NCBI GenBank assembly: GCA_017483305.1
Contig: JAFULC010000061.1
Coordinates: forward strand, 200 to 64,199
DNA: 64,000 nt
Origin: Clostridia bacterium
GTDB taxonomy: Bacteria > Bacillota > Clostridia > Oscillospirales > CAG-272
Reading direction: 5' to 3'
The notes under the pieces were generated by a model that did not search any database, was not told the DNA's origin, and was given only the letters and a program-made list of their open reading frames with translations. A program made the position numbers and the translations under genes. Shown piece by piece: positions 4,387-18,048 of the stretch (its first letter is position 1; every line of letters starts with the position of its first letter).

Positions 4387-5463
4387 TTATGCTTTTTTGA
4401 GCTCAAACACGCGCAAAAGAATAGTAATCATCATATCGCGCTTTTCCTTGTCGAGTCCGCCGTAGCTCTTTATGATCGCGGTGATCTTGGGCAAGCCGCC
4501 GCGCATAAGCTCGGTCAGAGTTCTCGCGCCCGACGAATCAATAACGTCAAACAGGGTCTCAACGACCTCGCGCTTTTCGTCGAGAGTCATCTTCTCCATT
4601 CGCTTGCGGAACTGCTCCTCGTTCTTCTGTCCCGTCTTTGAAAGCTCCTTGAGCTTGACGAACCGAGGTCCGTCGAGTGTCCAGGAGTACGGATCGTGCT
4701 GCAAAAGACCCGTGTTCGTGCTTTTTACGACCGTGCACTTCTCTACTCTTTCAAACATCGTGCCAAACACCGAAGATTGAGGCATTATCACCTTCAACCG
4801 CTCTCTCACCTTCTCGTAGTCCTCGGACTCGATAAGCGAGTGAGAAAATCCCGGCCCGTCCAGCGAATACGCGCGCAAAATTCTTTCCTTAACGCTATCC
4901 GAGCACTTGATCGCCGAATAGATCGCGAGATTTCCGCCCTTTGAGTGCCCCACCGTGTATATTTTTTCGTCGGGGTATTTCGCGGCAACTCTCTCGAGGT
5001 ATTCCACCGCCATTCTCTGCGCAGGGATCTCGTCAAGGAATGCAAGCCTGCAATCCTCGTGCCAACCCGCGATAGAATCGTCGGTTCCTCTGAATACGAC
5101 GATCATTCGGTTGCAATCGATGTGGTAGGTCACCGCACCGAACTGATAGCCCTCCTCGTGACTCGTCTGAGCCTCGAAATCGGTTATAAGCGCACCGCCG
5201 TAGCGTCTCGTTCTCGCCGCCTCGCAGAATGTCCTGTTGATCTGCTTCGACGGGAAAATAATACCGAAGCTGACCTTTTCATACTTGCCGTCGGCACAGT
5301 AGTCCTTCGCCGCCTCACTCAGCGTACAGGGCTCGCCGTGACAGAGCTTTTCGTAGTCAACGTAAGCCATCATAGATAGCACCGCGCTGTCGACCTCGCC
5401 GAACTTCGATTCGATAAACGAAAGGTCTCCGCGCCATTTCAAATAGTCAAATATAGTAGCCAT
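4387..5463 (-). CDS. DUF2974/Mbeg1-like alpha/beta hydrolase (lipase-like)
   Basis: DYLKWRGDLSF, FRGTDD, nucleophile elbow GHSKGG, DGPGF, QHDPYSW. Confidence 0.88.
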   Translation of the reverse strand: MATIFDYLKWRGDLSFIESKFGEVDSAVLSMMAYVDYEKLCHGEPCTLSEAAKDYCADGKYEKVSFGIIFPSKQINRTFCEAARTRRYGGALITDFEAQTSHEEGYQFGAVTYHIDCNRMIVVFRGTDDSIAGWHEDCRLAFLDEIPAQRMAVEYLERVAAKYPDEKIYTVGHSKGGNLAIYSAIKCSDSVKERILRAYSLDGPGFSHSLIESEDYEKVRERLKVIMPQSSVFGTMFERVEKCTVVKSTNTGLLQHDPYSWTLDGPRFVKLKELSKTGQKNEEQFRKRMEKMTLDEKREVVETLFDVIDSSGARTLTELMRGGLPKITAIIKSYGGLDKEKRDMMITILLRVFELKKA

Positions 5464-5529
5464 ACTCTGCCCTCCTTGCTTTATTCGGTTACATTATATC
5501 ACTACATTATTAAGCAAGCTTTAACTTAA

Positions 5530-7200
5530 TTATTCCTTTATTTCGGTCACCGATCCGATCAGTCTGATATTATCGACGTCGGTTGCCGAATACTCGATAT
5601 GAAGCTTGTCGCCGATCTCGAAGAATATCATCTGCTCGAGGTCGCGAAGCATTCCCTTGTAGTAAACCCCGCTCTCATCAACGAAATAAATGACCGTATT
5701 GCCGTCCACGGTATAGGTCTTGATGTCCGTGACCGTGATATCTGCCGCAAGCAGCTGATTTTCGGGAAGCTTGTCGCCGTCAATGAGCTCATTCTCGACC
5801 AAAAGCTCCTTATAAGCCTTCATCAGATCGATCTGATTGGGCGCGGTGGCAACCACGCTGGGATGCTCGACGTTAACGAGCGCGTAAAGTCTTACGTAGC
5901 CGCTCGCATCCTTGAGCACCATAATATAGGTTGCCTGACCCGACACGTTGACGAGCGACGGGAAGGATGCCTTATATCCCTTCTCCTGAACTATGCCCTC
6001 CGCAGCATGCATAGCGCCGTATTCCTCCGCGCCAACGACGGGATAATACTTGTATTCGCCGGTTCTTGCGTTACTGATGATAAATCCGATGTTGGATTCG
6101 TCGCTTGTGACCGAGGTAACGCCCGTGAAGTACCACACGTCGTCGCCGATAACGATGTATCCGTAGTTGTCGGTGGTCTGCTTGCAGTCCTTGTTGCCGA
6201 TGATGCTATTGATGAAACCGCCCTTGAGAGTACCGAACCAGTTGTACTTCTGCTCGGCAAGGTCACCCGAATAAACGGCATCCACCCAAGCAGGCACGTC
6301 CTCGACCGCATAAAGCGTGCTTTCGCCCGTGCAGGGATCGAAAATGACCGCCTCGCAGACGTCCATAGCGCCAAACGGGAAGATCTTGGGCTTCAGGCAG
6401 GTGATTATGTAGTAGGGATTACCCTCGTCGTCGACCTCAAAGCTGATAAAATCGTCGAATATCTTTGTGGGATAGTCGAAACGGAGCTTTCTCATAAGAT
6501 CGTCGCCGAAAAACGCGCTCTGAACGTACTTGAGCGGCTTTTTGAGCTCCATATACTCGGCGCTGTTGTTCACGGGGTCGACCATAACGTATCCGGGAAC
6601 GCCCTTGTCCATATTGGCAAACCACTTGAAGAAATCGGCGTGCTCGAGGTTTGCGACCTTCTTGGGCGTGTACTTATAGTTGATCTGCGTGTAGTTGTCC
6701 GAGACCACGTACTGCGAGACCATGTGTGACACCTTACCCAAGGTCTTATTACCGAGGTAACGCGCCGAATCGCTGTCCATAAGCGCTATATTGGTGACCT
6801 CGTCCGACTCCTTCATGTCATCGGCAAACACCGCCTCCTCGACCTCGATCACACTCGCGTATTTTCTCGCGTTGAATACCTCGGAGGAGATTACGCTTCC
6901 GAGAATGAGAACGATAATAGGCGCGACTGTGATAAGCAGGGTGAGCTTATTGAGTCTGCGGCCGTTGAATTCAAATCTTGAATTTTGACGAATTTTTTTC
7001 GGATGGCTGTCCTCAGCCGACTTAAAAAGGAAGGGATAGGAAAAGGACAGTATCACAAACATAAGATACGACCAAAATTCAGGTGCCATCGGGTTTATCG
7101 GGGGCAACGCGATATAAAACGAGATCGCGGTGAACAATATTCCCGATACGACCGACAGAATTATTTTACCCTTTTTTGACATTGAACCAAGCTTTTTCAT
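5530..7200 (-). CDS. Conserved membrane-anchored hypothetical protein (3 N-terminal TM segments, large soluble domain)
   Basis: 556-aa ORF with GGAGG RBS and its own promoter (TTGACA 7267-7272, TATAAT 7244-7249, minus strand). Confidence 0.8.
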   Translation of the reverse strand: MKKLGSMSKKGKIILSVVSGILFTAISFYIALPPINPMAPEFWSYLMFVILSFSYPFLFKSAEDSHPKKIRQNSRFEFNGRRLNKLTLLITVAPIIVLILGSVISSEVFNARKYASVIEVEEAVFADDMKESDEVTNIALMDSDSARYLGNKTLGKVSHMVSQYVVSDNYTQINYKYTPKKVANLEHADFFKWFANMDKGVPGYVMVDPVNNSAEYMELKKPLKYVQSAFFGDDLMRKLRFDYPTKIFDDFISFEVDDEGNPYYIITCLKPKIFPFGAMDVCEAVIFDPCTGESTLYAVEDVPAWVDAVYSGDLAEQKYNWFGTLKGGFINSIIGNKDCKQTTDNYGYIVIGDDVWYFTGVTSVTSDESNIGFIISNARTGEYKYYPVVGAEEYGAMHAAEGIVQEKGYKASFPSLVNVSGQATYIMVLKDASGYVRLYALVNVEHPSVVATAPNQIDLMKAYKELLVENELIDGDKLPENQLLAADITVTDIKTYTVDGNTVIYFVDESGVYYKGMLRDLEQMIFFEIGDKLHIEYSATDVDNIRLIGSVTEIKE

Positions 7201-7278
7201 AAAAACCTCCTCGTTATGAATAAAACGATTCTTTTACAAGTAAATTATACCACTTCGCCGCCGAGATGTCAATAACTT

Positions 7279-7320
7279 AAGCCGCAAAAGCATCGGTTTT
7301 CCGATTGCTCTGCGGCTTTT
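7279..7320 (-). terminator. Hairpin closing the capsid operon
   Basis: AAGCCGCA-AAAGCATCGG-TTTT-CCGATTGCTC-TGCGGCTT imperfect stem-loop directly after the last phage-like gene. The U-tract is weak. Confidence 0.55.
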
Positions 7321-7328
7321 ATCTATAC

Positions 7329-7697
7329 TCAATTCGCTTCGGTGAAGCGCTTTTGCTCTCTTTCGATGAACTCGGCGGTCTTCATATCCTGAATCTCGGA
7401 CGCGTCGAGCACGAGCGCGAATTTGCGCTTGATCTTTACCCACTCGCCGCGCTTGATGATGCAGTTCTGACCGTTCACAGCGACGTAGACGTCATCTCTG
7501 TATCGGTCGTTGTCCTTGAAAAGCTTGACCGAAATGTATTCGTTGAGATATCTCTCATATTCCTTCGCCGCTTCCCTTGCGCGCTCGTCCGCGCTCCGCT
7601 TCTCGCCGCGAAGACGGGCGTTCTCCGCCTCCTTTTCGGCGAGCTTGAGCTCGTATTCCTCCTTGAGCGCAGCTATTGCCTCGTTGAATTTTGTCAT
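7329..7697 (-). CDS. Phage-like protein of the type that follows N4-gp56 capsid genes
   Basis: Coiled-coil N-terminus, then KLFKDNDRYRDDVYVAVNGQNCIIKRGEWVKI, a motif I recognise from clostridial phage post-capsid genes. Confidence 0.7.
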   Translation of the reverse strand: MTKFNEAIAALKEEYELKLAEKEAENARLRGEKRSADERAREAAKEYERYLNEYISVKLFKDNDRYRDDVYVAVNGQNCIIKRGEWVKIKRKFALVLDASEIQDMKTAEFIEREQKRFTEAN

Positions 7698-7778
7698 ATC
7701 AATGATCCTTTCTTGCAAAAAATTGTCGGGAGGAGCGAGCCCTCCGAGGAGTGCTCGCCCCAAAATCAGATCCTATGA

Positions 7779-9065
7779 TCAGACCGAAGCCGCGGTCTCG
7801 ATACGGATCATAAACGCCTCGACAAGACGGACGGTGACCTTGGTCGCCTTCCAGCCCACAGTTGCTCTCTGATTGAGAGGGTCGGAGCTGCCCGCACTGC
7901 CAAGCTGCTTGACGATATGCTCGAGTCCGCCGTCCGCAAGAGTGGTGGTGCCGTAAGCGTTCTCGCCAAATACGAGGGTCGCGTAAACGTCAACGCCGTT
8001 AGCACCCGCCTCACCGGGATAGATGATCGCATTTGCCGCGCAGGTCACGGAGGCGGCGGTCGCCTTGGTGCTGTCGGTGCAAAGCGTCATTGCGGAGGAG
8101 GTGTTTGCGGAAACGTAGTACTTCTTGCCCTCGATGAGCACTTCTCTGCCCACGAGCGCGCCATCAGCAACGCTCGCGTCGGTCTTGAAGCTGACCGTAG
8201 CCGAGCCGTTAGCCGCCGCGCTTACGGTGAGCGTTCTTGCGCCCTCGGCAAGATCCTCAGCGTGGAAGATCTTTGCCTCGGTGCTCTCGATGAAGCGAAC
8301 TCCCTCGATGCGACCGATCTCGCCCTCAAAGATAGCCGAGGGGTCGGCATACTGGTGGGGATACTTCCAGTTGGGATCGCTCATAAGGTCGTAGGCGCAG
8401 TCGGGGTGAATGATCGCAACGTAAGCGCCATCGATCTTCTCGGCGTTCTGATTCTTGAGGAATCTGACCGCCTTGCGAACCGCGTCAACGGTGAGGTAGT
8501 GGTTGTCCTCGGCGTTAGCGCTGCCGCCGACAAGCTGGCTACGGGAGCTGACGTCTCCCTCGGCATACTGCACGTTAGTACCGCCGACAAGCACCTCACG
8601 GGAGATGGTGTCGAGGGTTCTGCCTGCCTGAGAGCCGAGAAGCTTGGTCGCCATGCAGAGATTGTTGTCAATGGCGGTCATAAGAAGCAGGTCGGTGAGC
8701 TCAACGTAGCCGCCGTACTGTGCAACGGTCGCGTTGACGATACCCATATTGATGGTCTGTCCCGTGGGGGTGATTCCCTCGGCGATAGGATCCGTCAGCT
8801 TGGGCAGCGGATCGTATTTGCGGAACTGAACCGACTTTCCGTTGCCTGCGGGGATCGCATGCTTCTGCGCGAAGCGATCGTGAACGAGAGCAGGCTCGGC
8901 GTTGTCGATAAGATAGTCCGAATAGTAGGTTTTCATCTCGGGAGAAAGTCCCTCTCCCTCGGCGTATGCGGTGACCTCACCGCTCTTTGCGTTGATCTCG
9001 CCCTCGGTGCCAAGCACCTTGTCGCCTGCTCCGAAAAGCTGAAGATCTGCGTTGAAAATAGTCAT
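7779..9065 (-). CDS. Major capsid protein, N4-gp56 family
   Basis: LSPEMKTYY, AEPALVHDRFAQK, QYGGY, TAIDNNL, IHPDCAYDL, GEIGRIEGVRFIES, DPLNQRATVGWKA. Confidence 0.92.
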   Translation of the reverse strand: MTIFNADLQLFGAGDKVLGTEGEINAKSGEVTAYAEGEGLSPEMKTYYSDYLIDNAEPALVHDRFAQKHAIPAGNGKSVQFRKYDPLPKLTDPIAEGITPTGQTINMGIVNATVAQYGGYVELTDLLLMTAIDNNLCMATKLLGSQAGRTLDTISREVLVGGTNVQYAEGDVSSRSQLVGGSANAEDNHYLTVDAVRKAVRFLKNQNAEKIDGAYVAIIHPDCAYDLMSDPNWKYPHQYADPSAIFEGEIGRIEGVRFIESTEAKIFHAEDLAEGARTLTVSAAANGSATVSFKTDASVADGALVGREVLIEGKKYYVSANTSSAMTLCTDSTKATAASVTCAANAIIYPGEAGANGVDVYATLVFGENAYGTTTLADGGLEHIVKQLGSAGSSDPLNQRATVGWKATKVTVRLVEAFMIRIETAASV

Positions 9066-9110
9066 ATTTTTATTCCTTTCTGTTGTTGAATGTTTAATGA
9101 TCCGATCGGC

Positions 9111-9797
9111 TTAAAGCTTGATCTTCTCTCCCCCTGCCGCGCGCTTGGCAAGCCTTGCACGCTCGGCTCGGGTAAGCTTTGAGACGTCGAAGGGGCTTGC
9201 GGCGGTGCGGTGAGCAAGTCCGTTTTCGTTCGGCCTCGCTCTTTTGCTTCTGATCTCGCCAAGCACTCTTTCCTCGGTCTCTCTCGCCACGTCCTCGGCG
9301 GTCCGTTCGACTATTTCGTCGAAATGTGAGAGCTTATAGGCATCGGCAAGTCCGAACCTGCCGTCCTCGAGCAGAGCCGTCGCAATTTCGATAAATTTTT
9401 CGGAATTTAAGGCAAGCTCCTCGGAAAAACCGCAAAACTCCTTTTTCAGCGCCTCGGAGGACTCACGGATCATTGCCACAAGCTCGTCGCGCGTTAATTT
9501 TTTCGACTTCTCGGCAATCTCTGCGCGTCCCTCCTCCATCGACTGACGAAGCTTCTCCTCCTGCTCCTTGAATTTACGGAAACGGCGGTTTATCATCCTC
9601 TGCGTGTCCTCGGTGTAAAACTCCTTGAACCGCGATCTGATAAGTCTGTCGTATTCGGCGCGCTCGGCGCGTCTTGTCTCCTCGGCGGATAAGATCTCGC
9701 CGTCAGAAAAAAGCCGACTCTCCTCTGCGCTCTCGTCCTCGGGTAACGCCCCGATAGCGTCTTCGTCCACGAAGATATCCGTTTTGTTTTCTTCCAT
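9111..9797 (-). CDS. Putative capsid scaffolding protein
   Basis: Acidic, helical 228-aa protein between Prp and the capsid gene. C-terminus RPNENG...DVSKLTRAERARLAKRAAGGEKIKL resembles such scaffolds. Confidence 0.7.
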   Translation of the reverse strand: MEENKTDIFVDEDAIGALPEDESAEESRLFSDGEILSAEETRRAERAEYDRLIRSRFKEFYTEDTQRMINRRFRKFKEQEEKLRQSMEEGRAEIAEKSKKLTRDELVAMIRESSEALKKEFCGFSEELALNSEKFIEIATALLEDGRFGLADAYKLSHFDEIVERTAEDVARETEERVLGEIRSKRARPNENGLAHRTAASPFDVSKLTRAERARLAKRAAGGEKIKL

Positions 9798-9835
9798 AAG
9801 TAAAAACGTAATCCTTTCCCACCGTTATCGGTGAT

Positions 9836-10171
9836 CTACGCGCGGCAGGGGTTCATTTTCCAGCTCCACGCGTTGTTTTCGACCTCTACGTACCCGGGAT
9901 AAGTGAGTGAGATCTGCCAGATTCCGATGCAGGCAAGCTTCATCGCCTCCTCACCGTCCTGCCCGCAGCTCACGTCAGCACATCCCGAGCTGAGCCGATC
10001 AAGGCTCGTTCCCTCGGAGCAAAAGTTTGAAAGATAGCCGCAGAGCGAATAGAATATGCCCGACACGGCGGCGCAAACGATATCGTTGCCCTCGCCACTA
10101 AAGCCTGCGTGGCCTTCTATTTGCAGTCTGAGGCGACCGTCCTCGCGCCTTGAAAACTCCGCCTTAATCAT
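9836..10171 (-). CDS. Prp-family cysteine protease (phage-related ribosomal-protein L27-processing type, DUF464)
   Basis: Catalytic His/Cys motif IEGHAGF...GNDIVCAAVS. Start overlaps the portal stop codon. Confidence 0.85.
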   Translation of the reverse strand: MIKAEFSRREDGRLRLQIEGHAGFSGEGNDIVCAAVSGIFYSLCGYLSNFCSEGTSLDRLSSGCADVSCGQDGEEAMKLACIGIWQISLTYPGYVEVENNAWSWKMNPCRA

Positions 10172-11720
10172 TGTCCTCTTCCTTTCCGTCTCCGTAGAGC
10201 GAGCGGATCGATGCCTTGAGCATCCCGACTCCCTCGAAATCCATCATTTCGAGCATAAGCAGGGTCTGTGCGGCGTTTTCGGGTCTGAACGCGCCCGAGT
10301 CGTAAAGCTCCTTTGCGAACTTGTTTTTCTTCTCGGACTCGCTCGGCGCCTTCTTGACCGCGCTGATCTCGATGTCGAAGTGAGGTCGGTATCCGTCCTC
10401 GCCAGCCCTGATGCTCTTGCCGCAAAAGCCGAGGTATTCTCTCGCGCCGTCGTCACCGACTATGCGGAAAACTCTCGTCTCGTCGTAAAACTGACGTATC
10501 AGCTCGACCACGAGCGCGATTATTCTGATGTAGGCACGGTAGGTCTCCTCTATGCCGTCGCGCGACGCCTTCGCTCCCGCCTCGCGCAAAATGCTTATTG
10601 CCGAAGCCGCGGTGATGCCGCCGCTGATGCCTCCCTGAGAAACATCGAGCGAGCCCGTGACGGTCTTGAGCTCCTCTATCTTGAGCAGCTTCGCATCCAT
10701 CACAGAGTCGTTCATCGGGGATATCTCGATCTGACGGAGCTTTTCCTCGTCAATGTCTCCCTCTACCTCCACGATGCTTCGATCAAGGTCAAGGAACTCC
10801 TTTTCGTTGACTCCGAGGCTTCGCTTCGCCCAGAAGCGCACACGCGACGCCCAATCCGTGTATTCGAGAATGTTCGCATCGATACGGTTGATGTATCTCT
10901 GCGCCTCTGCCGAGGTAGCGATGACTCCAAAGCCATGCGCCTGTCCCGTCGGGTACATTCTGTCGAAAACTATCGGGTACTGACCGTGCTCATACCAGCC
11001 GCAAGGGCAGCTCGGGTCGCTCTCCGAGCTGTAAAGCACGCATTCACCGATGAATTTGCACAGATGGAGCTGAGAGATGCCGTCGGGAAGATACTTTTTA
11101 TAGTACCAATCGACGACGAGGCACTTGCCGTCCGCCGTACTCATTCCGAGTGACGAGGCAAGAGAGCTATCCTGCTCGCGAAGCTGACCGTAGTCAACTC
11201 CGAAGGCTGCCTCAAGCGCGTCGATATCGCTATGCGAGACGATGAAAAGGTTTTGCGAGTCCTGAATATCCCCGACGCCTATCTCCCAGAAAATGTCCTC
11301 CAGAGCAAGCGCGCGGATATCGATATCGCCAAGTCCGTCCTCAAGCGCATTGTTCCAGAAAACTCCGTAAGCGGCGGTGCCGTGCTTGAGCTTCTCCCAG
11401 CAGTTGTCCGAGTAGGTCTGCTCAAAGCCGCACCTTTGCGTTATCACGGGAATAATCTTGGATAAGGTCTCGGCGTATTTTTCATCGCGCTTCTCTCTCG
11501 GGAGACAAACGCAGGACGGAATACTGTCGATCACGTCGGCGTGCTTATTGACTATACTGTTGAATATCCAGGACGACGATTCGCCGCCGGTATAGACCGC
11601 GCGCCATATATCGCCCTCCGACGCTATTCTGCTCTCAAGCTCTGCCTTTTCCCTTTTGTAGCGGATAAGCGTTTTGATGGCAAGAGAGAGGTCGGGGGCT
11701 GCCGTTTTATTTTCGTTCAT
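10164..11720 (-). CDS. Phage portal protein
   Basis: WIFNSIVNKHAD, LPREKRD, KLKHGTAAYGVFW, VVDWYYK, GWYEHGQYP, SGGITAASAI, ELIRQFYD. Sits directly after TerL. Confidence 0.85.
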   Translation of the reverse strand: MNENKTAAPDLSLAIKTLIRYKREKAELESRIASEGDIWRAVYTGGESSSWIFNSIVNKHADVIDSIPSCVCLPREKRDEKYAETLSKIIPVITQRCGFEQTYSDNCWEKLKHGTAAYGVFWNNALEDGLGDIDIRALALEDIFWEIGVGDIQDSQNLFIVSHSDIDALEAAFGVDYGQLREQDSSLASSLGMSTADGKCLVVDWYYKKYLPDGISQLHLCKFIGECVLYSSESDPSCPCGWYEHGQYPIVFDRMYPTGQAHGFGVIATSAEAQRYINRIDANILEYTDWASRVRFWAKRSLGVNEKEFLDLDRSIVEVEGDIDEEKLRQIEISPMNDSVMDAKLLKIEELKTVTGSLDVSQGGISGGITAASAISILREAGAKASRDGIEETYRAYIRIIALVVELIRQFYDETRVFRIVGDDGAREYLGFCGKSIRAGEDGYRPHFDIEISAVKKAPSESEKKNKFAKELYDSGAFRPENAAQTLLMLEMMDFEGVGMLKASIRSLYGDGKEEDND

Positions 11721-11739
11721 TGGGTATGTGTCCTTTCTT

Positions 11740-13218
11740 TTATTTAAATCTTGCCCTTACCGTATAGCTGTCGGAGGCTTGACGGTAAAGGTCGAGCGGG
11801 TCTGCCGAGATAATCAGGCTCTGCCCCGTCTTTTTTAATGCAGGCACGGGGCATTCCATACATACGTAGCGAAGCTCGTCGTATATGTGATCCTCGCCCG
11901 AGGTGTCCACGTCCTCCACGTCGGAGGAATCGTAAACAAGACAAGGAAAGGTCCTGATAAACTGCCGACAGGTCGAGAAAACGTAAAGCCTCGGCTTGCC
12001 GTTCTCGTCAAAGGCAAGACGGTTGTGGACCTGCTGCTTGCCCGCGATCCGCGAGTTGTCGGCGCGGTCCCAATATATTCCCTGCTTTTCCATAATGCCG
12101 CCGATGCTCTCGCCGCCGTTTTTCTGATAGATCGCGGGGTCGGCGACTCCGTGGATAGTCCTGCCCGAGAGGTTTTCGTCCTCGCGCTCGATGCGCTTGA
12201 TCTCGGTCGCGACCTTCTCCGCCTCCCAGCGCACGCCCTCGTTCGGCGTGCCCGTGCAGCCGTAAAGCTCGCGGATGCGGTAAAGCACGCCATCGGTGTC
12301 CTCGGCATACCAGCCTACCGAAAAGGGCCGCGAATATCCCCAGTCGAAGCCGCGGTAGATCCGCCAATGCTTCGGTATTCTGAAGGGCGAGATCACGTGA
12401 GTCGCCGTGCGGTCAAGGTATCGGTCGGGATCGTTCTTCCACTCGGTAAAGACCTGTCCCGAAAAGCCGTTCCAATCGCCGTAAAGCAGTGCCGCACGCT
12501 CGGCTTCGGGGAGCGACGCCAGACGCGTAAGGTAGTCGGGATCGTTCCTTAGCAATATTTCGTTATCAAAGACCGTGGACGGCACAAAGATCCTTGATTT
12601 CCGTCTTTCCTCCTCGTGACCGTCGGGAAATCGGATCTTCACCGTCTCCCAGATCGTAGTCATAGGCGGCGCGGGGGTGATAAATCTTTCCTTGACCCAT
12701 CCGTGACCGATGCCGCCGGGATTCGCCTGCGCTCTCATATAGCACCTCGTGCCCGGGCCGCTCGGTCGGTTTCGCGAGAAAAGATAGCTGTATTCGTCGA
12801 ACGTGAACTGCGTCAGCTCGTCGAAATCGATAAAATCGTAGCGCTTTCCCTGATAATTGTATCGGTCAGAGGCGTGGGCAAGCGAGCCGAAGTATATCTT
12901 CGCACCCGACGGAAAGCGCCAGAAATGTCTTGATTCTTTGTAGACCGCCGCGGGACAAAAGTCCGAATATATCGAATAGGATCGGTCTATAAGCTCGGAG
13001 AGCTGTGGATAGGTCTTGCGGAGTATCAGACCGCGATAATGCGGTATATTGATCTGCCGCAACGCCTCGGCAAGCGCGCAATCCGACTTTCCGCCGCCCG
13101 CCGCGCCGCCGTAAAGAGCCTCGTCCTCAAGTCTTCGCATAAACGCCGCCTGTCTCGGTTGAGGTCTCCAGACTACCCTTTTTTCTCGGGCGTTGCCGCC
13201 CTTTACGTTACCTGACAT
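11740..13218 (-). CDS. Terminase large subunit
   Basis: Q-motif PQPRQ, Walker A YGGAAGGGKS, Walker B FDELTQF, NPGGIGHGWVKERF, nuclease motifs GFDWGYSRPF and EDHIYDELRY. Confidence 0.95.
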   Translation of the reverse strand: MSGNVKGGNAREKRVVWRPQPRQAAFMRRLEDEALYGGAAGGGKSDCALAEALRQINIPHYRGLILRKTYPQLSELIDRSYSIYSDFCPAAVYKESRHFWRFPSGAKIYFGSLAHASDRYNYQGKRYDFIDFDELTQFTFDEYSYLFSRNRPSGPGTRCYMRAQANPGGIGHGWVKERFITPAPPMTTIWETVKIRFPDGHEEERRKSRIFVPSTVFDNEILLRNDPDYLTRLASLPEAERAALLYGDWNGFSGQVFTEWKNDPDRYLDRTATHVISPFRIPKHWRIYRGFDWGYSRPFSVGWYAEDTDGVLYRIRELYGCTGTPNEGVRWEAEKVATEIKRIEREDENLSGRTIHGVADPAIYQKNGGESIGGIMEKQGIYWDRADNSRIAGKQQVHNRLAFDENGKPRLYVFSTCRQFIRTFPCLVYDSSDVEDVDTSGEDHIYDELRYVCMECPVPALKKTGQSLIISADPLDLYRQASDSYTVRARFK

Positions 13219-13232
13219 CGACTCTGCCCTCC

Positions 13233-13724
13233 TCAGCCTTCCTCGTCGATCGTGTCCGCCTCGGGTATCTCGACGACTCCGCCGCCCTCACCCTCGGCAT
13301 CCCTTTCGGGTCGCTCGCTCCATCGCTCGGGCTGACGGTTCTTGAGCCAGAAGATCTCGGCTCGCAGGTCGGCGGGCACGTGGGCGGTGTCAACTCCCGT
13401 CGCAAGCTCCTCGTACTCGCGTATCTTTTTGCCCGTCTGGGGGTCAAACTCGACTCTTTTGAGCTTGTACGTCTTGTCCACCGCCACGTTGTAGCCCGTA
13501 GCCTTCTTATAAAGCGCCCTGACTATATCGTAGTCGGCGTTTTCCTTACCAAGACCGAGCGCCTCGGCAAAATCGGGATACTTGCGCTTCCAGAGTCGGA
13601 ACGTGGGCATCTCAATGCCGCACCCGATCGCGATCTCCTCGTCCGACAAGCCCTCGTCGGCAAGTCGGCGGACTCGCTCAAGTCCGCAGGACTCGAGCCA
13701 GCGCTCGTATTTAGTTCTCGCCAT
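13233..13724 (-). CDS. Terminase small subunit-like HTH protein
   Basis: GLSDEEIA...TFRLWKRKYPDFAEAL, ALYKKATGY, IFWLKNRQPERW. Immediately upstream of TerL. Confidence 0.85.
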   Translation of the reverse strand: MARTKYERWLESCGLERVRRLADEGLSDEEIAIGCGIEMPTFRLWKRKYPDFAEALGLGKENADYDIVRALYKKATGYNVAVDKTYKLKRVEFDPQTGKKIREYEELATGVDTAHVPADLRAEIFWLKNRQPERWSERPERDAEGEGGGVVEIPEADTIDEEG

Positions 13725-14088
13725 CTGTGCTGTGCGCCTTCGCGCTTACTTCGTCATTCGCTTCAGCGGCTTCGCTGTTAGCGAATTTCACAGACACCTC
13801 GTCGTTCGCTTTTGCGTAACCGCCGCATCGCTCAACGGTTATAACGTAATCGTCGCCCACCGTACCGACTATCGCGCGGTAGCTTCCGATGGCATCGCGT
13901 ATCAGCTCCTTGGGCACGCGGACACCGTCGTGCTTTTCGACGAGAAGCGCAAGGTATGCCGAGAGGATGTCGTTGGTCTCTTTATAGCCCCTGCTTCGCT
14001 CTCGCTCGAGCTTTATTTGCTTGTTTTTCAGGGCGATGATGCCTCTGTATATTCTGCTTGTCAGTTTCACTCGCGTACTTCCTTTCAT
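13711..14088 (-). CDS. Hypothetical protein in the capsid operon (true start may be an internal GTG near 14070)
   Basis: 125-aa ORF whose stop overlaps the TerS start. Confidence 0.55.
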   Translation of the reverse strand: MKGSTRVKLTSRIYRGIIALKNKQIKLERERSRGYKETNDILSAYLALLVEKHDGVRVPKELIRDAIGSYRAIVGTVGDDYVITVERCGGYAKANDEVSVKFANSEAAEANDEVSAKAHSTDGEN

Positions 14089-14272
14089 AGTAATATCTAT
14101 CCATTGCCTGATAAAACGGGCAATTCTTATACGCCGTCGGGTGTGCGCAATAGCCGTACACGATCTCGCGGCGCGCTATCCTGTCGGGAAATTTGAATCC
14201 TGCGCATTCGCATCGGATCTTGTCCTTTTCCTTCAGGCTTTGCAAATATGGGCATGTTCCTTGTATCGCCAA
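13982..14272 (-). CDS. Small Cys-rich hypothetical protein, first gene of the capsid operon
   Basis: CPY...IRCEC...YC...YKNCPFY cysteine pattern. TTG start after a GAAAGG RBS. Confidence 0.65.
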   Translation of the reverse strand: MAIQGTCPYLQSLKEKDKIRCECAGFKFPDRIARREIVYGYCAHPTAYKNCPFYQAMDRYYYERKYASETDKQNIQRHHRPEKQANKARARAKQGL

Positions 14273-14336
14273 AATCTTAACCTTTCCGCGCCTGCTCGCT
14301 CGGCAGAATAGAACGAAAGGCAGACGCTATACACTC

Positions 14337-14352
14337 GTTAAGTTTGCTTAAC
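14337..14352. promoter_or_regulatory. Palindromic putative repressor operator GTTAAG-TTTG-CTTAAC
   Basis: Perfect 6-4-6 inverted repeat. Related sites lie at 14773-14788, 14806-14821 and 14836-14851. Confidence 0.55.
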
Positions 14353-14549
14353 TCGGTGCTCAAAAAAATAACCGTCGGATAACGGCTGAAGCTTGAAAAG
14401 ATCCGTGTATCCTTCGATATTCGTTGTGGCATAAGGCTTTTTGACATCGGAGACTGTAATATCAGCGCCCTTGCACACTCAAGCAAGTCATCGCAGGTTC
14501 TGCCCAAAAGCTCTCTGCTTTTGCCTGCTCTGCAACCTTAACTGTGCCA

Positions 14550-14578
14550 ATTATAGCACATTTGTTCTATTTTGTCAA
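14550..14578 (-). promoter_or_regulatory. Sigma-A promoter of the capsid operon, with an SOS-box-like site in the spacer
   Basis: Minus strand TTGACA-aaatagaacaaatgtgc-TATAAT (17-bp spacer, extended TG). GAAC-AAAT-GTGC is one mismatch from GAAC-N4-GTTC. Confidence 0.75.
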
Positions 14579-14805
14579 CCCCCTATAGCGCATTTACAGG
14601 CAAATTTTTCCACAAGGCGAAAATCCTTACGGCATAAAGCTTTTGGAGGTTGATGGGGATGTCGTGGTGAAATTTTTTCTGCAATTTTTTATCATCAGGG
14701 CTCGATTCTCGTTCGCTTGTTTCCCTACCCCTAAGCAAAACTGCGAAAAAGAGCAAAAAACATCAAATTTTAATTAATATTGTTTAACTTTTTTCGAAAA
14801 ACCTA

Positions 14806-14834
14806 TTGACATTTGCTTAACTTTGCGGTATAAT
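14806..14834 (+). promoter_or_regulatory. Sigma-A promoter of the repressor gene
   Basis: TTGACA (14806-14811)-17 bp-TATAAT (14829-14834), overlapped by CTTAAC half-sites. Confidence 0.8.
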
Positions 14835-14899
14835 ATTACAGTAAGCTTAACTAATCACGAAACGTCCTTCGACGTTTGGGAGTTCTAACGAGGTTCCGT

Positions 14900-15520
14900 A
14901 TGACAGATTTTAAAAATCGCCTGGCAGCCGCCATGGCCGAAAAAAATATGAGAGCCGCCGAGCTCTCAAGACGAACGGGGATTTCAAAGCCCCGCTTAAG
15001 TCAATATCTCAGCGGCGTTTACGTTCCGAAGGCAGACGCTATCTGCGCGATGGCTCAGGCTCTGAACGTAAGCGAGACCTACCTCCTCGGCAGCTCCGAC
15101 ACTCCCTCGGTCGCAGAGATAAAGAACGTTAATTTCAAATTTCTTCCCGTCATCGGCGAGATCGCTTGCGGAGCGCCCATTTTCGCCAACGAGGAGGACG
15201 GAGATATGGTCGTTACCGATGCGGAGACCGATGCGGATTTCTGTCTCATCGCCAAGGGCGACAGCATGAAGGACGCACGAATCTGCAACGGAGACACCGT
15301 GTTTATCAAGAAATCCGACACGGTCAACAACGGCGAGATCGCCGCGGTCATCATCAACGACGAGGCTACTCTCAAGCGCGTTTACTACTACCCCGAAAGC
15401 GAAAAGCTTATGCTCATTCCCGAAAACAGCAGCTACGAGCCGCTCGTGTTCGTGGGTCGAGACCTTGAAAAGATACACATCATCGGCAGAGCCGTCGCGT
15501 TTAAATCTGATATAAGATAA
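14900..15520 (+). CDS. CI/LexA-like repressor: XRE HTH plus S24 autopeptidase
   Basis: AAELSRRTGISKPRLSQYLSG HTH, cleavage loop GEIACGAP, catalytic GDSM and TLKR. Divergent from the capsid operon. Confidence 0.92.
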   Translation: MTDFKNRLAAAMAEKNMRAAELSRRTGISKPRLSQYLSGVYVPKADAICAMAQALNVSETYLLGSSDTPSVAEIKNVNFKFLPVIGEIACGAPIFANEEDGDMVVTDAETDADFCLIAKGDSMKDARICNGDTVFIKKSDTVNNGEIAAVIINDEATLKRVYYYPESEKLMLIPENSSYEPLVFVGRDLEKIHIIGRAVAFKSDIR

Positions 15521-15537
15521 GGCATCCGGGAGTCCGA

Positions 15538-15741
15538 TCACCCGAGAAAGTCCTCAATGATCTCGGCTATATGCAGTCGGCTCACTTCCCCGTCGTTTAT
15601 CAGTCGGACAAGCCGCTCGACGCGCTCGCGCTCGAGACTAAGGCTTCGATAATATGAAACTTCGCCGTCAACCTCGGCGACGATGCCAAAGCTCCCGTCC
15701 TCACAGACTATGAGCTTTGCGCTTACAGATAATACAGTCAT
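15538..15741 (-). CDS. Small hypothetical protein (DUF6514-like)
   Basis: SLSLERERVERLVRLINDGEVSRLHIAEIIEDFL. GAAGGA RBS upstream. Confidence 0.6.
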   Translation of the reverse strand: MTVLSVSAKLIVCEDGSFGIVAEVDGEVSYYRSLSLERERVERLVRLINDGEVSRLHIAEIIEDFLG

Positions 15742-16048
15742 TTTTTAATCACGTCCTTCGTGCAGATACTGTGCTTATTATACCACACCCTGCCGCACGG
15801 ATGGATATTCAGATCGGATATTCACGTCTGTCGGATCGTCCGAAAAATGCGATTTCCCTTTTGTTTCAAAGAAAATGCGAAGGTTTGCAAAGCGTCGCGC
15901 ACCATCCGAAGCTTAATATTTATTCATCATTGTTCAAGCAGGCGCTTGTGATTGATTTCTTTTGTGTAAACGGCTTTTGGTGCGAGAAGAAAATATTTGC
16001 ATTCCAATTTCGCATACAAGATAAAATTTGCACTATTTCGAGGACCCT

Positions 16049-16798
16049 ATGTCACAACCCCAAGCAACTCACAGTGGGCATCGCGCCCGAATGAAAAACA
16101 AATTCGCGGAGCACTCAGACAGTGTTTTCTCGGATCACGAGCTTCTGGAGCTTTTGCTCTTTTACGTTATACCGAGAGTAAACGTCAACGAGATCGCGCA
16201 CAGGCTTATCGACGAGCTTGGCTCACTTGAAGCGGTTCTTACCGCAGAGCCCGAGCGACTTTGCAGAGTCGCAGGTGTCGGCAAGGCGACCGCGGAATAC
16301 ATTTCCTTGATAGGCAAGGTAATGAGCCGCGCAAAGCGCGAGACACCCGACCTCAAGCAGACCTTTTCGTCTCTTTCGATGATCGGCGAATTTCTCGTCC
16401 AGTATTATCGCGGATACAACAAGGAAAAGCTTTGCGTGCTTTTCTTCGACTCGAGAATGAAGCTTATCAAGCTCGTAGAGCTCGAGTGCGGAGGACCGAC
16501 CGAGATCGCGGTATCTCCCCAGCAGATCGCAAGAGATGCGGTCATTTACAACGCGTCAAGCGTTCTGATCTCGCACAACCACCCAAGCGGAAGTCTCGAG
16601 CCGAGCTCCGCAGACCACAATCTTTCTCACCTGCTCGACATCACGCTTCGCTCGGTCGGTGTTCCGCTTATCGATCATCTGATCGTCAGCGGCAGCTCCT
16701 TCGTCACAACGATGAGCTCGTCGACAAGCTCGGTGAGATACAACGCCTATTCGGGTACCTACGGAGAGACCTTTGCCAAGGAATTCTTCAACAGCTGA
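16049..16798 (+). CDS. radC: RadC family JAB/MPN protein
   Basis: HSGHRARMK, DHELLELLL, HhH VAGVGKA, JAMM motif SHNHPSG...S..D, IDHLIV. Confidence 0.93.
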   Translation: MSQPQATHSGHRARMKNKFAEHSDSVFSDHELLELLLFYVIPRVNVNEIAHRLIDELGSLEAVLTAEPERLCRVAGVGKATAEYISLIGKVMSRAKRETPDLKQTFSSLSMIGEFLVQYYRGYNKEKLCVLFFDSRMKLIKLVELECGGPTEIAVSPQQIARDAVIYNASSVLISHNHPSGSLEPSSADHNLSHLLDITLRSVGVPLIDHLIVSGSSFVTTMSSSTSSVRYNAYSGTYGETFAKEFFNS

Positions 16799-16951
16799 CC
16801 GAGGGCCGCAGGTAAAAATTTCATAGCGGCGAAAAAAGCAAAAGCTATTGATTTTTCCCTGCATATATATTATCATAAGGTTATATTACACCGCTTGGTG
16901 TGATCTGATAAAATAAAATTTTAGGAATACATAAATCGGAGGATTACAGAA

Positions 16952-17968
16952 ATGGGATTATTTGAACACGACGAAACAATCGACGTTGGCGCTAACATAA
17001 AGGTAGTAGGCGTCGGCGGAGGCGGAAACAACGCTGTTAACAGAATGATCTTCTCCAATCTTCGCGGAGTAGAATTCATTACCGTCAACACAGACCGCAT
17101 GGCACTCAATCGCTCCAACGCTCCCTCTCAGCTCGTTATCGGCGAAAAGCTGACCGGCGGCAGAGGCGCAGGCGCTCGCCCCGAGATCGGTAAGCGCGCT
17201 GCTGAGGAATCTCTCGACGACATCAAGGCTCTCCTCGGCGAGACCGATATGGTCTTCGTTACCGCAGGTATGGGCGGCGGTACGGGTACGGGCGCAGCTC
17301 CCGTAGTTGCTCGCATCGCAAAGGAAATGGGTATTCTTACCATCGGTATCGTTACCCGTCCCTTCTCCTTTGAGGGTAAGGTAAGAGCAAAGAACGCAGA
17401 GGACGGTATTGCCGAGCTCTCCAAGTTCGTCGACTCTCTCATCATCATCCCCAACGACAAGCTCAAGGAAGCAAGCGATCAGAGAATTACGCTCAGAAAC
17501 GCTTTTGAGGTTGCCGACAGCGTGCTCTACACCGGTGTTAAGAGCATTTCCGACCTCGTAAACGGCGAGTCCTTCATCGGTCTCGACTTCGCAGACGTAT
17601 CCACCATTATGAGAGACGCAGGCTACGCTCACATGGGTACAGGCGCGGCTACGGGTAAGGACAAGGCAGAGATCGCTGCAAAGGCTGCTATTTCCAGCCC
17701 CCTTCTCGAATCCTCCATCAAGGGCTCTCACGGTATTCTTATCAGATTCGTTGTTTCTCCCGACGTTGGTCTCGAGGACGCAGAGCTTGCAGCTACCCTC
17801 ATTCAGAACGAGGCTCATCCCGATGCGAACATCATCTGGGGTGTCGGCTTTGACGACGAGCTTGAGGACGAGATGCAGATCACTATCATCGCTACCGGCT
17901 TCGACAAGAAGGCAGAGGAAGCAGACGACCGTTGGGGCGACCTTATCGGCGGCATCAAGTCTAAGTAA
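16952..17968 (+). CDS. ftsZ: Cell division protein FtsZ
   Basis: [17 protein letters not shown], tubulin motif [15 protein letters not shown]. Confidence 0.98.
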
Positions 17969-17983
17969 TTTCACTTATAATTT

Positions 17984-18019: not shown

Positions 18020-18048
18020 GTTTTTGGGGAGTGACGTATCAGAACGAC

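Follow-up and report, generated by a model that had tools for sequence, protein, structure and literature searches.

In an uncultured animal-gut Clostridia bacterium (genome of 2.01 Mb), a chromosomal gene module for phage heads and DNA packaging is, with a probability that we place at about one half, a podophage-derived system domesticated in the manner of a gene transfer agent (GTA) and not a prophage. The packaging, head and neck genes in the chromosome go back to an ancestral podophage relative; the module genes have since been handed down with the host at one site, and purifying selection has kept them intact. In this genus the pair of neck genes has relocated to a second locus (pfk-o109-p511-o888). 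The subclade of this genome lost the larger one, phrog_511, and constraint persisted on capsid, portal, terminase, Prp and the small neck gene. The initial annotation had proposed a vertically inherited, domesticated capsid system, which synteny, gene trees, dS and dN/dS support; the locus is neither absent from close relatives nor under relaxed selection, and no near-identical capsid was found in the complete phages of the databases searched.

Module organisation

The module is an uninterrupted minus-strand operon at 7329-14578 that runs from a Cys-rich ORF through a hypothetical ORF, TerS, TerL, P22-type portal, Prp, scaffold and N4-gp56-type capsid to a small post-capsid gene, matching the tight, co-directional gene set first described. 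Coordinates are positions in the window, the whole 64,000-nt stretch of DNA analysed, and families were assigned by Pfam (PF) and PHROG (phrog) matches.

7281-7320, no strand assigned: inverted repeat (hairpin) directly after the last gene
7329-7763, minus strand: post-capsid gene (phrog_15239, E 1e-23)
7779-9065, minus strand: major capsid protein, N4-gp56 type (PF13252, E 2e-13; phrog_1357, E 2e-80)
9111-9797, minus strand: scaffold protein (phrog_13908, E 2e-22)
9836-10171, minus strand: Prp-family cysteine protease (PF04327, E 4e-14)
10164-11720, minus strand: portal, P22 type (PF16510 P22_portal, E 6e-25; phrog_156, E 5e-67)
11740-13218, minus strand: TerL, large terminase subunit (PF03237; phrog_979, E 4e-58)
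13233-13724, minus strand: TerS, small terminase subunit (phrog_309, E 5e-38)
13711-14088, minus strand: hypothetical ORF, 125 aa, start uncertain, overlapping the Cys-rich ORF
13982-14272, minus strand: first gene, Cys-rich protein of 96 aa, pattern CPY...CEC...YCxHP...C
14337-14352, no strand assigned: palindrome GTTAAGCAAACTTAAC, candidate operator, 3′ of the leader hairpin, present in 8/13 genus leaders
14370-14387, minus strand: terminator-like hairpin and T7 run in the 277-nt leader, by terminator scan
14550-14578, minus strand: operon sigma-A promoter, TTGACA-17-TATAAT, 12/12 match, TG before the -10
14806-14834, plus strand: repressor promoter, TTGACA-17-TATAAT, 12/12 match
14876-15520, plus strand: divergent CI-like repressor, HTH_3 and Peptidase_S24 (PF00717, E 7e-25; PF01381, E 4e-10; phrog_4, E 7e-42)
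15538-15741, minus strand: small DUF6514 gene adjoining the repressor (PF20124, E 4e-6)
54316-54645, minus strand: orphan neck gene o109, 109 aa (phrog_12105, E 5.5e-19), about 40 kb from the module

Pfam and PHROG searches give no family for the Cys-rich protein. Its gene is kept in 20/20 loci; every aligned row has Cys7, Cys21 and Cys42, and most rows also have Cys23 and Cys51. The gene also lies 5′ of the terminase genes in related phage contigs of ~40 kb. The 125-aa hypothetical ORF has no match in the family searches, and homologues were found only in the close subclade and one sister locus. By eye, the N terminus of TerS reads as a helix-turn-helix; packaging could thus be directed to specific sites instead of taking DNA at random, a point against the GTA reading. 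The catalytic motifs reported as intact are so on alignment: among 34 TerL sequences, conservation is at least 95% for Walker A (GGAAGGGKS), the acidic residues of Walker B and the Asp residues of the nuclease domain, and the catalytic His and Cys of Prp occupy their columns in 20/20 aligned rows, including the host Prp (contig C11). The module Prp is probably the prohead protease. The capsid protein carries an L27-like N-terminal Prp site, DLQLF/GAG (slash, cut), whose motif recurs in 19/20 orthologues and resembles the N terminus of host L27 (MVRLSLQFF/AHKKG). The scaffold gene lies between the Prp and capsid genes in 18/20 tabulated loci of the genus and sister genera. Translation of the post-capsid gene probably starts at the ATG at 7697, giving 122 aa; the protein has a coiled-coil N terminus, a highly conserved C-terminal domain and 13 invariant columns across 20 sequences, and a profile search for PDB relatives gives none.

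The divergent repressor and the consensus promoter of the initial annotation are both in place. The repressor is distinct from host LexA (contig C20) and adjoins the module in 12/12 genus loci examined, and GTTAAGC motifs lie within and beside its promoter. The same operon promoter is found in all 13 genus loci having both repressor and first gene; its spacer reads GAAC-N4-GTGC, with conserved half-sites and a variable N4. Within the leader, the scan calls a hairpin and T-run in 5/13 genus sequences and alignment adds T7 runs in three more, while the palindrome occurs at only one further place in the genome. By tblastn, matches to the DUF6514 gene were found only in the close subclade, at four loci (the window and L023-L025). 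The operon does end at an inverted repeat, which a terminator scan of the minus strand does not call. The first claim of a host-like codon style stands only in part, as module G+C differs from that of the flanks (0.53-0.59 at 8-14 kb versus mostly about 0.45-0.55 over the rest of the window).

Phage relatives and the second locus

No capsid protein of at least 60% identity occurs in 50,697 GenBank phage records, and IMG/VR capsids of at least 73% identity sit only on fragments of 4-18 kb. The complete relatives are 13 uncultured IMG/VR podophage contigs of 39.8-43.1 kb (capsid identity 50-65%), ordered TerL-portal-Prp-scaffold-capsid-post-capsid-(several genes)-phrog_12105-phrog_511. They share the head order and families of the module, together with Prp, the post-capsid gene after capsid, and both neck families. 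The two contigs read, L205 and L208, also have genes that separate the neck genes or lie outside them, and these extra genes are missing from the module. Bacillus phage Page (Pagevirus, NC_022764) shares the order and families of TerS, TerL, podovirus-type portal, scaffold and capsid, but its capsid identity is only 35%, and it has annotated tail, lysis and replication genes that the module is without.

The module had been described as head-and-packaging-only. Its head set is confirmed, but the orphan neck gene o109 also belongs to the system. This gene sits between pfk and the gene for an 888-aa membrane protein, and its own profile (E 3e-20) matches it alone among 10,082 genome ORFs. It is genus-wide (22/24 genomes), syntenic in 8/8 loci and constrained (dN/dS 0.08-0.14 in seven pairs with dS under 1.3), and is new here. 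In related phages the phrog_12105 gene lies 3′ of capsid and directly before phrog_511. The latter is kept in sister genera and in 9/24 species; we did not find it in this genome or in the other 14 species of its subclade (15/24 species), so the particle may be incomplete, which counts against the GTA reading.

Other phage functions were sought on several scales. As initially noted, ORFs scanned on both flanks (619-30093) gave no integrase, replication, tail or lysis family, and the module has no att-like direct repeats around it. Neither a tail fibre nor a lysis cassette was found nearby, no integrase was found on the contig, and recombinases occur only on other contigs. A tblastn of all ORFs from seven related phage or prophage loci against the genome found no tail or neck gene beyond o109, matching only the module, o109 and generic genes (SSB, HTH regulators, GH25 hydrolase). 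When 29 profiles built from 20 related loci were run against the 10,082 ORFs, the phage-structural ones matched only TerL, portal, Prp (and host Prp), scaffold, capsid, post-capsid and o109, and the remaining matches were host-type (Ffh, YlxM, SSB, GH25 hydrolase, ABC-transporter-like proteins). PF05065 and PF10145 were absent from the genome search, and neither genome-wide approach found a tail fibre, receptor-binding protein or holin. The sole endolysin-like match is a 514-aa GH25 protein adjoining housekeeping rRNA-methyltransferase genes. The suggested search for orphan genes elsewhere yields one neck gene and no tail gene.

Inheritance and selection

All compared genomes are MAGs. The capsid gene is present in 23/24 other species genomes of the genus; the exception, a genome of 79% completeness, retains the neck-gene locus. 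Gene order is identical in 12/12 genus loci (Prp unmatched in one, scaffold in another) and in 6/6 loci from three sister genera, with ffh/rpsP on one side and ftsZ/sigma/dcw on the other. One of ftsZ, sigma, dcw or ffh adjoins the module in 9/12 genus loci, and the sigma gene adjoins the repressor in 4/6 sister-genus loci, the rest being short contigs or having other neighbours; a module of ~42% identity adjoins rpsP-ffh in one further genus. The capsid and ffh trees agree in terminal clades, and capsid dS is similar to ffh dS in 8/9 close species pairs, the ninth being G000-G016. Together these results support the vertical inheritance first claimed.

Across the genus dS is saturated, and median dN/dS is 0.08 for TerL, 0.15 for capsid, 0.19 for portal, 0.20 for TerS, 0.24 each for scaffold, post-capsid and Cys-rich genes, and 0.32 for Prp, compared with 0.09 for FtsZ and 0.065 for Ffh. 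These values bear on whether the module is a slowly decaying cryptic prophage remnant without present function, an already disfavoured reading that we consider very improbable. In its favour, the genes for tail, lysis, replication and lysogeny have disappeared, 15/24 species have lost phrog_511, G002 lacks the module Prp and the o109 copy of G009 has an internal TAA. Decay nevertheless fits poorly with dN/dS of 0.08-0.32, with a conserved promoter, Prp site and catalytic motifs, with a single site in 23/24 species, and with TerS, TerL, portal, capsid and post-capsid ORFs that are open in all 20 tabulated genus and sister loci (Prp and scaffold were each missed in two). The G002 and G009 losses, and a module G+C above that of the flanks, also count against the GTA reading.

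Exchange between two species

Between G000 and G016, the tract at window positions 7313-15745 is 97.8% identical versus about 80% in the flanks, and its dS is 0.007-0.17 versus 0.29-1.4 for flanking genes. The exchanged block of 8,434 nt is the whole 8.4-kb module and includes the DUF6514 gene: its edges are sharp, one at the final codon of the post-capsid gene and the other where the DUF6514 gene starts (boundary 15745). This shows a recent horizontal exchange of exactly the module, with the proviso that these are MAG contigs in which chimeras are possible. Since one species pair swapped exactly this block, the DNA carried by particles may include the module itself; such transfer is foreign to classical GTAs and counts against the GTA reading.

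A sharp-ended block, and the listing of the module as viral fragments in IMG/VR, would also suit a mobile PICI-like satellite that inserts repeatedly at one hot spot with a recombinase encoded elsewhere. We regard this as the least probable of the readings considered: integrase, att repeat and replication gene were not found in the searches above, capsid and ffh agree in dS (8/9 pairs) and in their trees, and none of the contigs from four metagenome runs skips the module.

Possible modes of DNA packaging and delivery

The module could instead be a resident, immobile 'tail-stealing' or phage-interfering element that forms and fills its own heads and takes neck and tail from an infecting related podophage. 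This predicts transducing particles and lowered phage yield, as for capsid-forming PICIs (cf-PICIs) but without mobility genes, and cf-PICIs that take only tails are described in the portion of that literature available to us. The absence of tail genes from the genome searches, the complete podophages with homologous portal and neck genes, and a second, distant phage-like head-and-neck cluster on another contig in one genome of the same genus (G014:C6, 34-40% identity) all favour it, and strong constraint on the small neck protein in a subclade without phrog_511 fits the docking of phage-supplied parts. Against this, the S24 repressor suggests that the trigger is the SOS response and not a phage protein, podophage tails build stepwise on the portal and may not fit across portal identities of 34-40%, and the Pfam and PHROG searches of the module brought no recognisable defence-type gene. 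We judge it unlikely, though to be taken seriously.

A head-only gene set under selection without delivery or lysis genes might also serve a non-transfer use, such as DNA export or sequestration in the SOS response, or a DNA-filled decoy. To our knowledge such capsid use has no precedent, and the constraint on terminase, portal and neck protein alike speaks for DNA that is packaged and kept inside, as it is in a virion. There is a small chance that this reading is correct.

Under the GTA reading, the S24 repressor would keep the operon silent at its perfect sigma-A promoter, probably by acting at GTTAAGC-type sites and at the conserved spacer, until DNA damage (by RecA-stimulated self-cleavage) or another signal derepresses it, with the leader hairpin and T-run as a possible second checkpoint. 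Portal, scaffold and capsid protein would then form a prohead in which the module Prp trims the capsid protein after LQLF. TerS and TerL would load the head with cellular DNA, and the small neck protein would be placed on the portal.

Comparison with known systems

Classical GTAs are siphovirus- or myovirus-like, have tails and lysis genes, are controlled by host regulators and are not known to move their own genes preferentially. Unlike these, the module is podovirus-derived, lacks tail and lysis genes, has a phage-type repressor and was once exchanged between species; control by such a repressor, not by known host regulators, counts against the GTA reading. The module shares with RcGTA, CcGTA, BaGTA and VSH-1 (summarised in PMC12946183) a phage origin, a chromosomal location, vertical inheritance and purifying selection, as well as genes spread across more than one locus and a lack of replication or integration functions. 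As described in the sources available, cf-PICIs encode TerS, TerL, portal, protease and capsid themselves and lack tail genes, but they carry integrase, replication genes and att sites and move between hosts; none of these was found in the module, which co-diverges with its host.

By gene content and description, the nearest published counterpart is the FpGTA found in Faecalibacterium prausnitzii (Borodovich et al., Nat Commun 2026, PMC12946183). There, operon I encodes TerS, TerL, portal, scaffold and capsid, and 125 kb separate it from a second operon; the 40 nm capsids without visible tails carry 8.4-8.9 kb of DNA, and GTA-like packaging is called common in Ruminococcaceae and Oscillospiraceae (PMC12946183). 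FpGTA is backed by particle, proteome and DNA-size data, whereas the present module is known from genes. Its second operon supplies baseplate, fibre, receptor-binding protein, holin and endolysin, whereas here there is one small neck gene (two in 9/24 species); the lack of any tail fibre, receptor-binding protein or holin among the genome search matches counts against the GTA reading. The words 'repressor' and 'protease' have 0 occurrences in the available text (PMC12946183), and the module has a divergent S24 repressor and its own Prp. Both systems are podovirus-type TerS-TerL-portal-scaffold-capsid operons, about 10 kb long and carried on the chromosome of a gut Clostridia bacterium, without replication or integration genes, with extra parts at a second locus and near-ubiquitous in their own genus. 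The longer sister-genus module, which includes neck genes and has 9-10 ORFs in about 9.5 kb, fits the FpGTA description of '10 ORFs, 10.5 kb, some tail components' in that text.

Results

Anatomy of the module

Nine ORFs run without interruption along the minus strand, from 14272 to 7329 of the window, which covers bases 200-64199 of contig C57 in the 2.01-Mb, 97% complete MAG G000. Pfam and PHROG searches assigned families to seven of the nine, confirming the head and packaging operon described in the initial annotation.

Features of the module and its flanks
Minus strand, first ORF: Cys-rich protein, 96 aa, without a family
Minus strand, second ORF: hypothetical protein, 125 aa, without a family
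Minus strand: TerS (phrog_309)
Minus strand: TerL (PF03237, phrog_979)
Minus strand: P22-type portal (PF16510, 88.3 bits against a curated cut-off of 26.1)
Minus strand: Prp cysteine protease (PF04327)
Minus strand: scaffold (phrog_13908)
Minus strand: N4-gp56-type capsid protein (PF13252, 50.9 bits against a curated cut-off of 23; phrog_1357)
Minus strand: small post-capsid protein (phrog_15239)
14876-15520, divergent from the operon: repressor (HTH_3 and Peptidase_S24)
ffh-side flank, host genes: solute-binding protein, ylxM, ffh, rpsP, Mbeg1-like hydrolase, 556-aa membrane protein
ftsZ-side flank, host genes: DUF6514 gene, radC, ftsZ, sigma factor, ftsQ, murG, ftsW, mraY, murF, murE, PBP

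The catalytic motifs of TerL and Prp, read as intact from the single sequence, are conserved among relatives. Walker A, the Walker B acidic residues and the nuclease-domain Asp of TerL are at least 95% conserved across 34 sequences, and the Prp His and Cys columns, aligned with the host Prp, hold His and Cys in all rows. The post-capsid protein had no match in a PDB profile search, and its matches in the protein atlas were unnamed clusters only, all under 0.9.

Family searches bore out the ordinary host character of both flanks. No att-like repeats bracket the module, and no integrase or replication genes were found in the module or its flanks, as had been described; the serine and tyrosine recombinases of G000 lie on other contigs only. 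The 556-aa membrane-protein gene beside the module (o556, 5530-7200) belongs to no family and adjoins the module in 9/12 genus loci. We rejected it as a tail or neck gene: it encodes three N-terminal membrane segments, matches no PHROG, has its own perfect promoter (TTGACA-17-TATAAT at 7244-7272), is missing from three genus loci, and in G016, the genome of another species, is split off from the module by an LRR gene. That gene (L025:12032-17080) encodes a 1682-aa BspA-type LRR protein (PF13306, 13 stretches) and is an insertion that parts the post-capsid gene from the o556 homologue; the corresponding place in the window, at about 7300, lacks it.

Maturation and regulation

Prp is known from work in Staphylococcus to cleave after an LQLF-type motif. 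A putative site of this kind, (D/N)LQLF / GAG-like, lies at the N terminus of 19 of 20 capsid proteins, and the host L27, whose gene adjoins that of the host Prp, begins MVRLSLQFF / AHKKG. At the G002 locus (L014), the portal-scaffold gap is only about 180 nt and no module-encoded Prp is present; here the host Prp may substitute.

The divergent CI-like repressor and the consensus sigma-A promoter of the initial annotation both stand: the repressor gene encodes HTH_3 and Peptidase_S24 domains, and the operon and repressor promoters are each a perfect TTGACA-17-TATAAT. The operon promoter is present in 13/13 genus loci with a conserved spacer, GAAC-N4-GTGC, in which N4 varies. After the -10, CAGTTAAG occurs in nine of the 13 loci; a GTTAAG-N4-CTTAAC palindrome is found in 8/13 leaders, and a hairpin with a T-run was called in five. 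Judged by sequence, the motifs make candidate operators, and the hairpin with its T-run a candidate terminator in the leader. An Rfam scan of window 6500-16500, at E up to 1, returned nothing. Since a canonical LexA is encoded elsewhere in G000, the module repressor is an extra S24 protein. The promoter spacer resembles the Firmicute SOS box; as a LexA box it was rejected, the upstream regions of host lexA and recA having no clear GAAC-N4-GTTC and the likeness to the lexA promoter being largely an extended -10. We retain the spacer as a candidate operator.

Near 25695 of G000 contig C50, a second copy of the promoter-spacer design (TTTACA-17-TATAAT with ACAGAACAGATGTGCTATAAT) is oriented towards an ABC-transporter-like gene and would read into its 3′ end. 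The sole other GTTAAG-N4-CTTAAC palindrome of the genome, on contig C63 at about 4367-4460, is followed by two similar sites, all upstream of a 434-aa gene. Only in G018 (locus L021) does a leader insert of about 2 kb, rich in ~19-nt tandem repeats (GGATGCGGACTGAAAGCAG-like), separate the operon promoter from the first gene.

Distribution and synteny

Among the 24 other species genomes of the genus, 23 carry the capsid gene (65-99% identity, one full-length copy each); the exception is 79% complete and retains the second locus described below. Extra matches within the genus are fragments on short contigs and one distant copy (38%) in the species genome G014. Across the family, capsid matches occur in 45/201 genomes and 26/97 genera, and in only 2/16 genomes from other families of the order.

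The order repressor / Cys-rich-TerS-TerL-portal-Prp-scaffold-capsid-post-capsid is kept in 12/12 genus loci, with Prp unmatched in one and scaffold in another, and in 6/6 loci of three sister genera. The module adjoins ftsZ, sigma, dcw genes or ffh/rpsP in nine of the 12 genus loci, the other three being short contigs or having different neighbours. The same sigma gene lies beside the repressor in four sister-genus loci, and in the other two the contig begins only with the first gene. One more genus has a module of ~42% identity next to rpsP-ffh. The TerS, TerL, portal, capsid and post-capsid frames are open in all 20 loci tabulated, among which Prp is missing in G002 and one sister locus and scaffold was missed in two. 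Among the close relatives covered, the module is neither absent nor variable, the 79%-complete genome aside. None of the metagenome contigs examined skips it, and contigs from an independent study's metagenome (run X10) span both module-flank junctions. The listed sequencing runs that share over a twentieth of the sampled words consist of metagenome contigs, recorded or guessed to be DNA, and no RNA run is among those listed.

Of 600 genome-contig stretches examined, 578 encode a capsid relative; the best 80 of these 578 come from uncultured MAGs of sheep, goat, yak, deer, horse and human guts and include no Faecalibacterium record. Among the matches listed, the genome-contig scan and the protein search alike gave near relatives from uncultured MAGs and nothing else. 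One contig labelled Candidatus Heimdallarchaeota archaeon (L159, JABCTC010000034.1) carries a capsid gene at 57% identity; its label probably reflects wrong binning of bacterial or phage DNA.

Selection, co-divergence and one exchange

The eight module genes measured have median dN/dS well below 1 (0.08-0.32), as the initial annotation had anticipated for a retained system, and relaxed selection is not seen. Synonymous sites are saturated in most pairs, which in itself shows that the genes have long been retained.

Median pairwise dN/dS (Nei-Gojobori; only pairs with dS 0.05-1.5)
Gene; median dN/dS; usable pairs
TerL; 0.08; 7/91
Capsid; 0.15; 37/91
Portal; 0.19; 2/91
TerS; 0.20; 7/91
Scaffold; 0.24; 3/78
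Post-capsid; 0.24; 15/91
Cys-rich; 0.24 (maximum 0.68); 16/91
Prp; 0.32; 5/78
FtsZ (host); 0.09; 17/21
Ffh (host); 0.065; 8/10

In quick nucleotide tree searches, the terminal clades of the capsid tree (24 rows) match those of the ffh tree (25 rows), and capsid dS is close to ffh dS in 8/9 close species pairs (for example 0.30 vs 0.43, 0.81 vs 0.96 and 0.32 vs 0.31). One ffh match, G004:C19:72195-73538, contains an internal TAA, perhaps through an error of sequencing or assembly, or perhaps because the copy is broken.

One species pair departs from this pattern. Between G000 and G016, window 7313-15745 (8,434 nt) is 97.8% identical, with flanks at 80-81%; the block is bounded by the final codon of the post-capsid gene at one end and by the DUF6514 start codon at the other. 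Inside it dS is 0.007-0.09 (0.17 in the post-capsid gene); outside, it is 0.29 for ffh, 0.40 for ftsZ, 0.78 for o556 and 1.2-1.4 for sigma/radC/Mbeg1. Local nucleotide identity to G000 is reversed between genomes: 93.6% in the ffh stretch and 87% in the module stretch for G017, a third species, against 86.9% and 97.2% for G016. Together, the block identity and this reversal indicate that two lineages have recently exchanged the module in one piece. Chimerism of a MAG may also lie behind so close a match, but the block differs between G000 and G016. Just outside the module (window 16000-19000 and 4400-7300), the sigma, radC, Mbeg1-like and o556 genes have dS of 0.8-1.4 between these genomes, which gives the surroundings a mosaic look, suggestive of recombination with lineages further away.

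Missing functions and a second locus

Every ORF of seven related phage and prophage loci was used as a tblastn query against the whole G000 MAG; the only matches were head genes, one further small gene (o109) and generic genes such as SSB, HTH regulators and a GH25 hydrolase. We also ran 29 profiles from 20 related loci against 10,082 G000 ORFs. Phage-structural profiles matched TerL, portal, Prp (with the host Prp), scaffold, capsid, the post-capsid gene and o109, and the remaining matches were of host type, among them Ffh, YlxM, SSB, the GH25 hydrolase and ABC-transporter-like proteins. Neither the phrog_511 neck protein nor the ~340-aa protein that follows it in phages had a profile match among these ORFs. 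HK97-type capsid and tape-measure families are absent from the MAG, whose sole lysin-like match is a 514-aa GH25 protein adjoining housekeeping rRNA-methyltransferase genes. With related-phage ORFs and profiles, no tail, adsorption or lysis functions were found in the 97%-complete MAG, although divergent genes could escape such searches. The initial annotation saw no tail or lysis genes either. The system nevertheless extends a little past the module, since the search for orphan genes elsewhere turned up a single neck gene.

This gene, o109 (54316-54645), is a member of phrog_12105 (E 5.5e-19) and lies about 40 kb from the module, between pfk and a gene for an 888-aa membrane protein (o888). 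It is present in 22/24 genus genomes, one copy having a TAA, is syntenic in 8/8 loci and has dN/dS of 0.08-0.14 (seven pairs with dS under 1.3). A PDB profile search with o109 returned no match; from gene order, we propose that its product binds the portal. The product of the neighbouring o888 (51544-54210) has several membrane helices near its N terminus and ends in a long acidic stretch. This gene has no Pfam or PHROG match, evolves fast (28-42% identity) and is always downstream of the orphan neck gene or genes across the genus.

The second locus reads pfk-o109-o888 in G000 and pfk-o109-p511-o888, with a phrog_511 gene, in 5/8 genus loci examined. The phrog_511 product may be a nozzle or tail-tube protein; its PDB profile search gave only a weak propeller-like match (5m11, E 2e-4) and two Kelch-like chains above E 0.6. 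The gene occurs in 9/24 species of the genus, whereas neither G000 nor any of the 14 further species in its subclade yielded a match; where it would be expected in the window, ~100 nt separate o109 from the gene for the membrane protein. The sister genera carry phrog_511 immediately behind the post-capsid gene, except that phrog_12105 intervenes in one of them, and host genes come next, melibiase and an MFS transporter among them. The closed 1.78-Mb MAG chromosome CP091718.1 has both neck genes once each, immediately downstream of the capsid gene. Seven ORFs scanned beyond them, including a GDPD phosphodiesterase and a lectin-like protein, show no tail or lysis family, and five have no Pfam match.

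Related phages and prophages have the order TerL-portal-Prp-scaffold-capsid-(post-capsid gene)-...-phrog_12105-phrog_511-(~340-aa protein)-tail and lysis genes. Near-identical genes were not found in complete phages. No GenBank phage capsid reaches 60% identity, the best being 42-52% on unverified human-faecal contigs and 35% in Bacillus podophage Page; for TerL, identity reaches 62%. IMG/VR capsids at 73% or more occur only on contigs of 4.3-17.6 kb, which are the module itself, and 13 contigs of complete size (39.8-43.1 kb) carry capsids at 50-65%. L205 and L208, the two with cleanly readable sequence, have this order in full, additional genes lying between the post-capsid gene and the neck pair. 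These ~40-kb contigs share the Cys-rich gene and the capsid Prp site as well.

The most economical history would begin with a domesticated element in which two neck genes accompanied those for packaging and the head; the neck pair would then have relocated to the second locus in this genus, and the larger neck gene would have been lost in the subclade holding G000.

Discussion

Synteny, trees, dS and dN/dS all support the original reading of a vertically inherited, domesticated capsid system, and we consider it very probable (about 0.9) that the module is a phage capsid-and-packaging system kept by selection. For its working as a gene transfer agent we put the chances at even. As the chief alternative, the module would be a system of heads only, which either takes parts from podophages that infect the cell or hampers those phages.

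Gene transfer agent-like packaging is described in several Ruminococcaceae and Oscillospiraceae, which package their own DNA in large amounts and in small capsids in virome studies; only one encoding gene cluster, that of the Faecalibacterium agent FpGTA, is known to have been pinned down (PMC12946183). A mouse study describes similar packaging and unassigned clusters (bioRxiv 10.64898/2026.07.08.737213). On a broader and rather doubtful reading, an ancient domesticated podophage capsid system, found in 26/97 sampled genera of the family, would drive much of the gene transfer agent-like DNA packaging described for gut Oscillospirales, a pared-down, tail-less form still being selected. One clade's form would then be a tail-less head with one portal-binding neck protein, and tail-less, DNA-filled heads would be functional in themselves; they would be completed with infecting-phage parts, or ~8-kb DNA cargoes would be released and recombined in recipients. 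From the coincidence of block size and headful size (8.4-8.9 kb in FpGTA), we speculate that the 8,434-nt G000-G016 block could be the footprint of one transfer.

As a system carried by many uncultured animal-gut Clostridia, the module is a well-defined candidate for a second gene transfer agent lineage or a relative of FpGTA, and it supplies concrete genes and candidate operators for study. Its evolution can be followed clearly: the system became fixed at one site, was divided over two loci, lost neck genes step by step under continued selection and was caught once in an exchange between species. The genus therefore offers a natural series on which parts a capsid-based transfer system can lose.

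Comparison with known systems

FpGTA has a 10.5-kb, ten-ORF operon with TerS, TerL, portal (RCH50851.1), scaffold, capsid (RCH50849.1) and some tail parts, and a 5.5-kb operon 125 kb away with baseplate, fibre, RBP, holin and endolysin; its particles are described as 40-nm capsids without visible tails, holding about 9 kb of DNA (PMC12946183). Compared by description only, the module likewise pairs a podovirus-type TerS-TerL-portal-scaffold-capsid operon with a distant second locus, whereas that locus is different and smaller in content, without baseplate, fibre, RBP, holin or endolysin. Like gene transfer agents in general, the module consists of chromosomal genes of phage origin for structure and packaging, lacks replication and integration functions, and is vertically inherited under purifying selection, one species pair with an exchange aside; it differs in that related-phage searches found no tail, adsorption or lysis functions for it in the G000 genome. 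Gene transfer agents also make particles whose cargo is mostly random host DNA, in lengths short of the genes that encode them. The module resembles capsid-forming PICIs in having its own packaging and head genes and no tail genes, but no integrase, att sites or replication module were found with it. Pseudogenes, relaxed selection and patchy distribution, the marks of a cryptic prophage remnant, are not seen beyond minor losses: one subclade lacks phrog_511, G002 lacks Prp, and a single o109 copy carries a stop. The module belongs with podophage head modules that have an N4-gp56 capsid and a P22-type portal, both Pfam families scoring above their curated cut-offs.
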